This document shows, piece by piece, positions 34,749 to 36,536 of a DNA stretch of 40,443 nucleotides. This DNA comes from a virus (Duplodnaviria > Heunggongvirae > Uroviricota > Caudoviricetes), in the IMG/VR virus record IMGVR_UViG_2778261635_000003; one strand, 5' to 3'. Within the stretch, counting starts at the first letter, position 1. Every line of letters begins with the position of its first letter. The notes under the pieces were generated by a model. The model had not been told where the DNA came from and searched no databases. It saw only the letters and a program-made list of their open reading frames with translations. Both the position numbers and the translations under genes were made by a program.

Positions 34749-35783
34749 ATGTCGAAAAACTGGATGCGTCACTTTGAATTATTGCTTGTTGATGATAAGG
34801 GCGACGGGATAAAAATTTCTGAGCTTAAAGTCACTTTCAATATTCAGAAAATGCCTGCGACCATATTCAATGGATTCGTTGGGAATTTTAAGGTTTATAA
34901 CCTGTCCCCTACCACTCAGAACCGGATTATGCAGAAGGAGTTTTCGCGTATACAGGTTATTGCCGGATACAAGGGGCAACCGGATGCAGCAGGTAATTAT
35001 CCTGATGAAAACGTTGGTATGATATTCAATGGAGATATCCGTTTTACTGTCACTGGTAAAGATAATGCCACAGACAGTTGGATCATGTTGCAGTGTATTG
35101 ACAGCTGGGAAGGCCATCTGAATGCAAGTGTGAAAACCACAGTGGCAGCTGGCTGGAAGTACAGCGATCTTTTCAGTCTGGGTATGAAATCATTCGAACC
35201 ATATGGCATCGAATCCGGCGCAGTTCCTGACATGCCGGAAACGGTATTTCCCCGAGGGCGCGTTGTTTATCAAAACACATCAAGGTTGATGAATCATATC
35301 GCAGGGCAGTGTAAAGCTAACTGGTGGTATGAAAATAATCTGGTAAATATTGTTCCTGAAGATAAATATATTGGTGTTGCTACGGTGTTGAATGCTAACA
35401 CCGGGCTTATCGGTATGCCACAGCAGACGATGGGAGCTGGCGTAAATGTCAGATGCCTGATTAATCCAAATATTAAGCTCGGTGGGCTTATTCGTCTGGA
35501 TCAGGCATCTGTATACCGTGCCTCTTTGAGTAATGACCAGGTAGCGAAATCGCCAGCACGACTGGATGAGTCTGAAAGCGACGGTAATCTCTACGTTAAC
35601 GGTCTGCCAGGCATGTCACAGCCTGCCAGCATTAATACTGACGGTGATTACATTGTGGGCAGCATTGATTATACTGGCGACACCCGAGGGCAGGCGTGGT
35701 ATATGGACCTGCTTTGCCTGGCTAAAGGTGGCAAAGAACTATTGGCAAAAGGCACTTTGGACAAAGTCGGAGATGTAGAGTGA
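34749..35783 (+). CDS. Baseplate hub protein (gpD/Mu gp44-like)
   Basis: 344 aa; position and size in the Mu-like baseplate module. Confidence 0.55.
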   Translation: MSKNWMRHFELLLVDDKGDGIKISELKVTFNIQKMPATIFNGFVGNFKVYNLSPTTQNRIMQKEFSRIQVIAGYKGQPDAAGNYPDENVGMIFNGDIRFTVTGKDNATDSWIMLQCIDSWEGHLNASVKTTVAAGWKYSDLFSLGMKSFEPYGIESGAVPDMPETVFPRGRVVYQNTSRLMNHIAGQCKANWWYENNLVNIVPEDKYIGVATVLNANTGLIGMPQQTMGAGVNVRCLINPNIKLGGLIRLDQASVYRASLSNDQVAKSPARLDESESDGNLYVNGLPGMSQPASINTDGDYIVGSIDYTGDTRGQAWYMDLLCLAKGGKELLAKGTLDKVGDVE

Positions 35784-36116
35784 AAAAAGTATTTTTTTGT
35801 TTATTCTTGGCCCTGCCGTTAACAGTTTCGGCGGCAACGCAGTGCGGACCATTCCGCTTTGATGCTGGTAATGATGGCCTCATGCACATCAAATGGTCAA
35901 AAGCCAGAAACACAAAAAATGACCTTTTTGAAACAAAAAGACGATTTCGATAATGTCATGATGCAATGGATGTTACCTGATCCTAATACTGGACGTTGGT
36001 TAGGTATGGACTACATCAAACGAAACAAAAAAGCGATCCTCAACGTTGAAGTTATCCGCAAAAATATGGACGAGCCTCGGGAGTTCTGGACGTATGATTG
36101 CCGGAAGGTGAAGTGA
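35780..36116 (+). pseudogene. Secreted small protein split over two reading frames (frameshifted or recoded)
   Basis: GTG at 35780 opens a frame with a Sec signal peptide (MKKVFFCLFLALPLTVSAA) ending at 35953; a +1 frame continues to 36116; both frames are open across homopolymer runs at 35914-35938; region is AT-rich. Confidence 0.35.
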
Positions 36117-36255
36117 ATTACATTGGCGTCCAGCTTCTGCAGAACAGCATGGATGCGCCGAAAATCATCGGTTCCTTTCCATGCAAAAAGATTGTTGATT
36201 AATCACCCGTAATTATAATGTGATACTTCTACTTTCACGATAAGGAATTTGTCGC

Positions 36256-36495
36256 ATGTTCGGATTTGATAAATTAATAACTCCAAAAATCATCAACGTT
36301 CTGTATGGCATCACAATGTTACTTCTGGTTGTTGCCGCCATTATAACGTTTGTTAATGGGAAGGCTGCTGGCGCTTTAGTGCTTTTGTTATGTGCTGTAT
36401 TTTGCCGAATATTCTTTGAGTGCATCATGGTTTCATTTAAAAACAATGAGTATCTTCGCCGAATAGCTGAAGCGTTAGAAGCAAACAAGCAGTAA
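36256..36495 (+). CDS. Small inner-membrane protein (2 predicted TM helices)
   Basis: 79 aa, RBS TAAGGAA; two hydrophobic helices; AT-rich; followed by an intrinsic terminator. Confidence 0.5.
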   Translation: MFGFDKLITPKIINVLYGITMLLLVVAAIITFVNGKAAGALVLLLCAVFCRIFFECIMVSFKNNEYLRRIAEALEANKQ

Positions 36496-36511
36496 TGAAA
36501 CTTCAATAATG

Positions 36512-36536
36512 AACCCGCCACCCGGCGGGTTTTTTA
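36512..36536 (+). terminator. Intrinsic terminator closing the baseplate insertion
   Basis: Stem CCCGCC/GGCGGG with ACCC loop, followed by a run of six T. Confidence 0.6.

Follow-up and report, generated by a model that had tools for sequence, protein, structure and literature searches.

In a family of contractile phage tail modules, the baseplate hub gene and the central spike gene enclose a constant layout: hub, small exported-protein gene, variable cargo, conserved terminator, spike. We describe this arrangement from IMG/VR record IMGVR_UViG_2778261635_000003, a stretch of 40,443 nucleotides (the window) that is an Escherichia coli prophage, and from a comparison of 86 loci in which hub and spike are both present: the window itself, 77 IMG/VR contigs and 8 annotated records, spanning hub identities from 100% to 47%. 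We hold this anatomical account with high confidence. The locus in the window is probably best explained as a slot for accessory genes within the tail operon of an E217/SEN34-type myovirus, where the exported-protein gene is interrupted by a single extra A and the cargo is a mobile cassette with a gene for a DUF4282 membrane protein.

The left anchor of the slot is the hub gene (34749-35783, plus strand, as are all features of the locus; 344 amino acids), which matches PF22759 (E217_GP41, 31.5 bits) and the baseplate hub family phrog_196 (E 3e-80). The right anchor is the central spike gene (36555-37307, 250 amino acids), with the PF18352 N-terminal domain (149 bits), a GpV Apex motif and the Shine-Dalgarno sequence CTGGAG at 36543-36548. 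The two genes are 771 bases apart. A first-pass annotation of this region, made from the sequence alone, had described the DNA between them as AT-rich, and indeed the G+C content is 0.407 over 35780-36536 against 0.495 and 0.502 in the flanking tail genes. The same annotation had called the tail Mu-like, which did not hold. The PF22759 hub, the Pam3_gp18 plug, the DUF3383 sheath and the KPP10_Orf10 tube place the module with the contractile tails of E217, PB1, KPP10 and SEN34. A Dit-like protein, a sheath initiator and baseplate J are encoded in the same late region, as is the tape measure gene, which RefSeq labels in relatives as a lytic transglycosylase.

Directly after the hub, 77 of the 86 loci carry a homologue of the same exported-protein gene, the phrog_3443 family, whose start overlaps the hub stop or lies within a few bases of it; in the window, the hub stop TGA (35781-35783) overlaps the GTG start at 35780. 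The remaining nine loci are without phrog_3443 and have a different exported protein at this place. Eight of them encode an 80-residue, Thr/Gly-rich secreted peptide with four Cys (L033, L035, L044, L046, L047, L067, L075 and L081; for example L047:5034-5276) and one encodes a 233-residue lipoprotein (L078:5048-5749). Thus, an exported-protein gene follows the hub in 86 of 86 modules but belongs to three unrelated families, as if non-homologous genes had replaced one another at a fixed position. The whole stretch of ~750 bp had been taken for an insertion. This applies to the mobile cargo at about 36128-36546 only, since the secreted-protein gene is a near-constant member of the tail-module family.

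The constant right border of the slot is an intrinsic terminator at 36511-36538 (GAACCCGCC-ACCC-GGCGGGTTT followed by a T tract), which leaves about 20 nt to the ATG of the spike gene. Its hairpin (36511-36532), with a 9-bp stem of which 6 pairs are GC, reaches a fold z-score of -3.96, in agreement with the strong intrinsic terminator already recognized behind the membrane-protein gene. An equivalent hairpin with a U-tract was found at the corresponding distance from the spike start (about 20 nt) in 52 of 55 distinct loci, whatever their cargo, including five loci in which the slot is empty. RNAalifold analysis of 42 sequences gave a 7-bp stem with compensatory double changes in five pairs (for example CCCGCC/GGCGGG to CCCAGC/GCTGGG), and the stem is kept in Erwinia and Pectobacterium despite diverged neighbouring coding sequence. 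Because the hairpin is present regardless of cargo, the terminator belongs to the slot and not to the cassette, as had been assumed when it was described as the membrane protein's own. Its placement ahead of essential baseplate genes is unusual and implies an antitermination or insulator role. A candidate for a Q-family antiterminator is encoded by the open reading frame (ORF) at 16149-16952 (DUF1133 and Phage_antitermQ, the latter with 27.4 bits against a cut-off of 26).

Between these borders the cargo varies, and the spacing from the exported-protein gene to the spike ranges from 60 to 2968 bp. The DUF4282 cassette occupies the slot in 16 of the 86 loci. Elsewhere the slot is empty or holds other cargo: Arc-like repressors with a P22-type antirepressor, Bro-N/P22AR_C proteins, Phd/Doc, a zinc-ribbon/tRNA_anti-like membrane protein and various unannotated ORFs. 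Arc/Arc/P22-type antirepressor (immI-like) modules are found as tail-operon cargo at L003:2941-4492 and at L114:3908-5816 (Edwardsiella phage GF-2). In the window, the cassette spans 36128-36546 (G+C content 0.396) and comprises a recombination scar, a promoter-like site, the DUF4282 gene and the terminator. The term accessory cassette from the first-pass annotation fits the DUF4282 gene well, given its patchy presence, its low G+C content and its recurrence in other phage types.

The origin of the cassette can be read from its left end. The secreted-protein gene exists as two allele types with about 30% identity to each other, both encoding a signal peptide and two conserved Cys (C-terminal ends ...EVIRKNMDEPREFWTYDCRKVK in type A and ...QLLQNSMDAPKIIGSFPCKKIVD in type B). 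At 36125-36202 the window contains a scar of 78 nt that represents the 3' end (about 25 codons and the stop) of a type-B allele, ending in ...GVQLLQNSMDAPKIIGSFPCKKIVD. DNA and protein alignments showed that in Rb-23 the same sequence is the end of an intact 113-residue gene (WP_001214054.1). A 34-residue ORF at 36098-36202, absent from the first-pass annotation, is the 3' remnant of this second allele. Of 5426 complete E. coli genomes, 83 contain the cassette with at least 98.6% identity, most of them after an intact type-B gene as in strain Rb-23. Where the upstream gene is of type A, as in the window and 21 E. coli genomes, the scar stands at the cassette start. By these alignments, the cassette was acquired by recombination from a phage with a type-B allele, with 78 nt of that gene's 3' end included.

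The exported-protein gene of the window lies at 35780-36116, with a GGAG Shine-Dalgarno sequence at 35769-35772, 7 nt 5' of the GTG. It is a frameshifted copy of a gene for a small Sec-exported beta-barrel protein, of which intact relatives have 111 residues (for example WP_000755137.1). Intact relatives match the phrog_3443 profile over its full length (E 7e-48 for type A and 1.4e-47 for type B), and the window copy does so only with the extra A removed. The AlphaFold2 model of the intact protein has eight strands (pLDDT 87.9), so that the product is predicted to be a periplasmic beta-barrel of about 93 residues with a probable Cys22-Cys107 disulfide. The ORF with a Sec-type signal peptide that had been noted to start at 35780 and to be divided between two frames was confirmed. 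By heuristic call, the signal peptide consists of a K2K3 n-region, a hydropathy above 2 over residues 3-18 and V-S-A at positions -3 to -1. The n-region, the h-region and the AxA motif are kept across 75 homologues, among which C22 is invariant and C107 nearly so.

The family is small and confined to phages. Its 134 clusters at 90% identity all belong to Enterobacterales where the source is named; at 50% identity there are 55 clusters (1.84 billion representatives searched), and 20 of 50,697 phage records contain a member, nearly all in genomes of 33-47 kb. Two relatives (P0214 and P0225) are lipoproteins of 265-292 residues, in which an extra N-terminal domain of about 190 residues is fused to the barrel. 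Two long repeat proteins from the profile search (P0251 and P0262) were judged compositional matches and not family members.

A single base interrupts the gene in the window. The ORF from GTG 35780 encodes MKKVFFCLFLALPLTVSA/ATQCGPF..., goes out of frame and stops at 35953, and a second frame is open at 35859-36116. We aligned the region with three E. coli prophages, PEC422, TB06053 and 2013C-4991, all of which contain an intact 336-bp, 111-residue ORF. The sole difference that matters is an inserted A at 35891-35893, where the window has AAA and the relatives have AA (CATCAAATGG versus CATCAATGG). The 5426 complete E. coli genomes yielded 26 full-length matches, each of which lacks one base relative to the window. 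In IMG/VR, no contig contains the exact 29-mer that includes the insertion, compared with 14 contigs for the wild-type 28-mer. The extra A is furthermore the only gap in 11.4 kb relative to the closest relative, IMGVR_UViG_2541047944_000002 (99.7-99.8% identity), and the only unpaired indel relative to PEC422 across the 21-kb late region (18946-39893). The frame change had been placed at the homopolymers at 35914-35938, but the A6, T5 and A5 runs at 35914-35939 are the same as in the intact genes, and slippage there was rejected for that reason. That is, the secreted-protein gene is present and intact in related prophages, and the copy in the window is broken by one A.

Three explanations had been offered for the split: a pseudogene, a sequencing error or a slippage-based switch. 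Either of the first two fits. The absence of the extra A from all 40 near-identical copies indicates a private lesion or a sequencing error, and not a conserved or programmed feature. A real and recent pseudogenising mutation is the likely cause, since the run at the site is short, the long homopolymers of the gene were all called correctly and an independent frameshift is present in another copy of the same gene. This second case (L019:5032-5366, IMGVR_UViG_2675903468_000011) is a change from T7 to T6 in codons 5-7. If the extra A were instead an error of sequencing or assembly, the true genome would contain an intact 111-residue gene and nothing would be broken. The 40 copies that lack the base are compatible with such an error, as are further homopolymer differences from PEC422 in the early region, which is otherwise 99.7% identical (T7 versus T8 at 6965, A7 versus A6 at 8934 and C9 versus C6 at 9696). 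Natural variation or base-calling noise could account for these differences, which matter for the trust placed in the indel at 35891. An error is nevertheless unlikely: the site is a run of two to three A and not a long, error-prone one, longer runs in the gene (A6, T7, A6, T5, A5, A6) are exactly as in relatives, the indel is the sole gap in those 11.4 kb, and the frameshift in L019 shows that the gene is inactivated, or mis-called, elsewhere too. Still further from probability, to the point where we would be surprised to find it true, is the idea that the secreted protein is regulated through the split, either by programmed +1 ribosomal frameshifting or by a phase-variable slippage switch. 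Homopolymer runs abound in the gene and its 5' T7 run has changed length in L019, where it may represent a weak contingency tract or simply another lesion or error. However, the two-frame arrangement is absent from the near-identical copies and from all 77 homologous loci, and the whole barrel is encoded by a single ORF in relatives. The indel in CATCAAATGG comes without a known +1 motif, in-frame stop, rare codon or upstream Shine-Dalgarno-like stimulator. A programmed frameshift or contingency locus was accordingly rejected, the site of the insertion being no repeat tract.

The cargo gene at 36256-36495, with AAGGA (36242-36246) 9 nt upstream, encodes a 79-residue predicted helical-hairpin protein of the inner membrane (WP_000466689.1). 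The product matches PF14110 (DUF4282; 42.2 bits versus a cut-off of 27, residues 2-71 of 79) and phrog_12129 (E 8e-48). AlphaFold2 modelled helices at residues 10-33 and 37-78 (pLDDT 86), residues 12-30 and 41-59 form the maxima of hydropathy, and from the distribution of charges an N-in/C-in topology is predicted, in line with the membrane protein with two hydrophobic helices that had been annotated at this position. Among 37 homologues, the N-terminal FDKLITPKI and the end of the second transmembrane helix with the C-terminal helix (R51, E55, FKNNEYLRRI) are invariant, and the first transmembrane helix and the periplasmic turn are variable. In prophages of Erwinia and Pectobacterium, homologues with 65-68% identity are found in the corresponding slot. 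In Klebsiella siphophage-type prophages the gene lies directly 3' of the tape measure gene. Edwardsiella phage GF-2 likewise has it immediately behind the tape measure gene, and there the Arc/Arc/Ant cassette comes next. A Pantoea prophage has a homologue after the lysis cassette (holin, lysozyme, Rz), together with a promoter-like site (TTGAAA-17-TAAGAT) and a terminator.

Upstream of the DUF4282 gene, a promoter-like element with the sequence TTGTTG-N16-TATAAT was read by eye at 36192-36219. The -35 hexamer of this candidate promoter is probably supplied by the scar, within which it falls; that the TTG of the element comes with the scar may be why the scar travels with the gene. An antisense ORF at 36213-36521 (102 residues) was dismissed as a gene, since it recurs only through its overlap with the conserved DUF4282 gene.

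A precedent for such cargo exists in phage HK97. The HK97 gp15 moron is a small inner-membrane protein that is expressed from the prophage; its gene neighbours that of the tape measure, and the protein prevents DNA from entering, with an effect that depends on the tail (Juhala et al. 2000; Cumby et al. 2012; reviewed in PMC3594210). The DUF4282 protein resembles gp15 in its small size, its predicted location in the inner membrane and the position of its gene in a tail operon, next to tail-tip or tape-measure genes, and its repeated placement there fits this precedent. Both genes have a lower G+C content than their neighbours, a promoter-like site 5' (in the cassette, the element read by eye) and a terminator 3', and both are present in some close relatives and missing from others. 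Three properties of a moron are found in the cassette: patchy occurrence, deviating base composition (0.375 for the ORF, in addition to the values given above) and a terminator after the gene, albeit the slot's. Unlike the case of HK97 gp15, this terminator is conserved at the locus as such and not specific to the cassette. In addition, gp15 is YebO-like, while the DUF4282 protein has two helices and no sequence relationship to it.

For the exported barrel, the periplasmic inhibitor of the gp5 tail lysozyme of T4, Spackle (Sp), offers a comparison (PMC7677548). Both are small Sec-exported periplasmic phage proteins, in the case of the barrel by prediction, and the tape measure with its annotated lytic transglycosylase domain in the phage family of the window is a possible target of the barrel, analogous to that of Spackle. 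The structure of Spackle is helical, whereas the phrog_3443 protein is predicted to be an eight-stranded beta-barrel. Spackle is moreover an early gene of a virulent phage without homology to phrog_3443, and the copy in the window is frameshifted. We looked for resemblance of the barrel to inhibitors of lysozyme or lytic transglycosylase (MliC/PliC-like barrel, Ivy, Spackle) and found no sequence or specific fold match to them. Other phages encode receptor- or entry-blocking lipoproteins near tail genes, such as Llp of T5, Cor of phi80 and N15 and Ltp of TP-J34. With these the phrog_3443 family shares small size, export to the envelope and linkage to tail or receptor-binding genes, and two of its members are the lipoprotein fusions mentioned above. 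There is no sequence or demonstrated fold relationship between them, however, and the family in the window has a signal peptidase I-type peptide without a lipobox.

As a place, the slot resembles the P2 and P4 hotspots and the Arc-Ant region of P22 immI, which are phage accessory or defence hotspots. All of them are fixed positions between conserved genes that hold alternative cargo, here Arc with a P22-type antirepressor and Phd/Doc. The slot described here differs in lying between the baseplate hub and the spike of a different phage lineage, and no solid PADLOC defence match was obtained among the scanned cargo proteins.

What do the proteins of this locus do? Sequence features support targeting of both the exported protein and the DUF4282 protein to the envelope, and superinfection exclusion at the level of the envelope is, by analogy, their most likely role. 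An exclusion-type function as such has, in our estimate, somewhat less than an even chance. In the mechanism we propose, transcription in the lysogen that starts in or 5' of the slot would end at the conserved terminator, keeping the baseplate genes silent, and Q-modified polymerase would pass the terminator during lytic growth. Both proteins would act at the envelope on an infecting phage. Like HK97 gp15, the DUF4282 hairpin might act at the inner membrane and impede the tape-measure-mediated entry of DNA, and the periplasmic barrel, where intact, might bind a tail-tip component or a periplasmic factor of the host. A more far-reaching version is speculative and on balance doubtful: that the post-hub position is a dedicated exported-protein slot closed by the terminator, in which phrog_3443 neutralises the tail tip of incoming related phages and DUF4282 excludes them at the inner membrane. 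Equally doubtful is the target that the barrel would have in that joint scheme, namely the tape-measure transglycosylase or the spike.

Several observations weigh against this proposal. PADLOC returned no match for either protein, and among the scanned cargo proteins it gave only one weak, probably chance match. The overlap of the exported-protein start with the hub stop suggests late co-expression rather than expression in the lysogen. The conserved residues of the DUF4282 protein lie on the predicted cytoplasmic side, which makes a direct periplasmic block by this protein unlikely. The TTGTTG-N16-TATAAT element was not reported by a consensus scan, its -35 matching at only 3 of 6 positions, and promoter-like sites in the region do not exceed shuffled sequences (3 found versus 2.5 expected). 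No paper mentioning DUF4282 or PF14110 was found in the literature searched. A literature search on STY1065/1066/2021/2022 likewise yielded nothing functional.

Two other roles have to be considered. The phrog_3443 protein might be a structural or assembly component of the baseplate and its gene thus an essential tail gene, as its location within the baseplate cluster, its near-constant place beside the hub and the overlap with the hub stop would suggest. Yet tails assemble in the cytoplasm, and the family conserves both a signal peptide of the cleavable kind and two Cys that would suit a periplasmic protein; because it is Sec-exported, it should not be a virion part that is assembled in the cytoplasm. 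Its replaceability argues likewise, as it is absent from nine of the 86 otherwise complete modules, where unrelated exported proteins are found instead. Moreover, its alleles reassort independently of the hub (hub 99% identical with secreted protein 63%; hub 80% with secreted protein 99%), and the gene is frameshifted in the window and in L019. A baseplate role is therefore very improbable. The DUF4282 protein, in turn, could be a modulator of lysis, a hairpin of the class II holin or antiholin kind, and not an exclusion factor. Its two transmembrane helices, the predicted N-in/C-in topology and the charged C-terminal helix are what such a protein would have, and the Pantoea homologue lies just 3' of a holin, lysozyme and Rz cassette. 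But the lysis cassette of the window is at about 18.9-20.3 kb, some 16 kb away, and in relatives that cassette includes a holin of the lambda family; a dual-start motif is missing, the gene occurs in tail operons in four other contexts, and the promoter-like site and terminator are of the moron kind. Membership in class II holins was rejected on the missing dual start, the tail-operon location and the distance to the lysis genes, and we consider a role in lysis improbable. Exclusion at the envelope remains the reading we prefer for both proteins.

Outside the slot, the prophage adjoins yebY and the RyeA/RyeB small RNA locus, and its early region is Rac-like (integrase, recET, ralR/RalA, kilR). 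Searches of the region under study against Rfam gave no elements at gathering thresholds. Elsewhere in the window, Rfam identified RyeA/RyeB in the host flank on the yebY/integrase side (463-607), RalA antitoxin RNA (2169-2347), DicF (7826-7877, minus strand) and sok (14653-14802). At 16975-17173, just 3' of the Q-like gene and 5' of an ORF6N-domain gene (17226-17807), it found a P1/P7-type C4 antisense RNA with a1/b1 targets and an isrK RNA. This stretch looks like an immI-like antirepressor control region.

The exported-protein gene and the DUF4282 gene are uncharacterised, but as accessory genes of phages they are fairly ordinary. What the window itself contains, a single-base lesion in an accessory gene and a moron in a tail-operon hotspot, is equally ordinary, and the value of the comparison is broader. 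The lead that goes beyond this locus is confined to the invariant position of the exported protein and the conserved terminator within the tail operon. Temperate myoviruses of the SEN34/E217 type in Enterobacterales keep a fixed order of hub, exported protein, cargo, terminator and spike, with a slot that swaps antirepressor modules, toxin-antitoxin pairs and small envelope proteins, and phrog_3443 and DUF4282 are two uncharacterised families that recur beside tail-tip genes. If the more far-reaching version, which we doubt, is true, the tail operon would contain a two-layer envelope exclusion module, phrog_3443 would be a new periplasmic beta-barrel and DUF4282 would be a new inner-membrane exclusion protein tied to tape-measure genes across myo- and siphophages.

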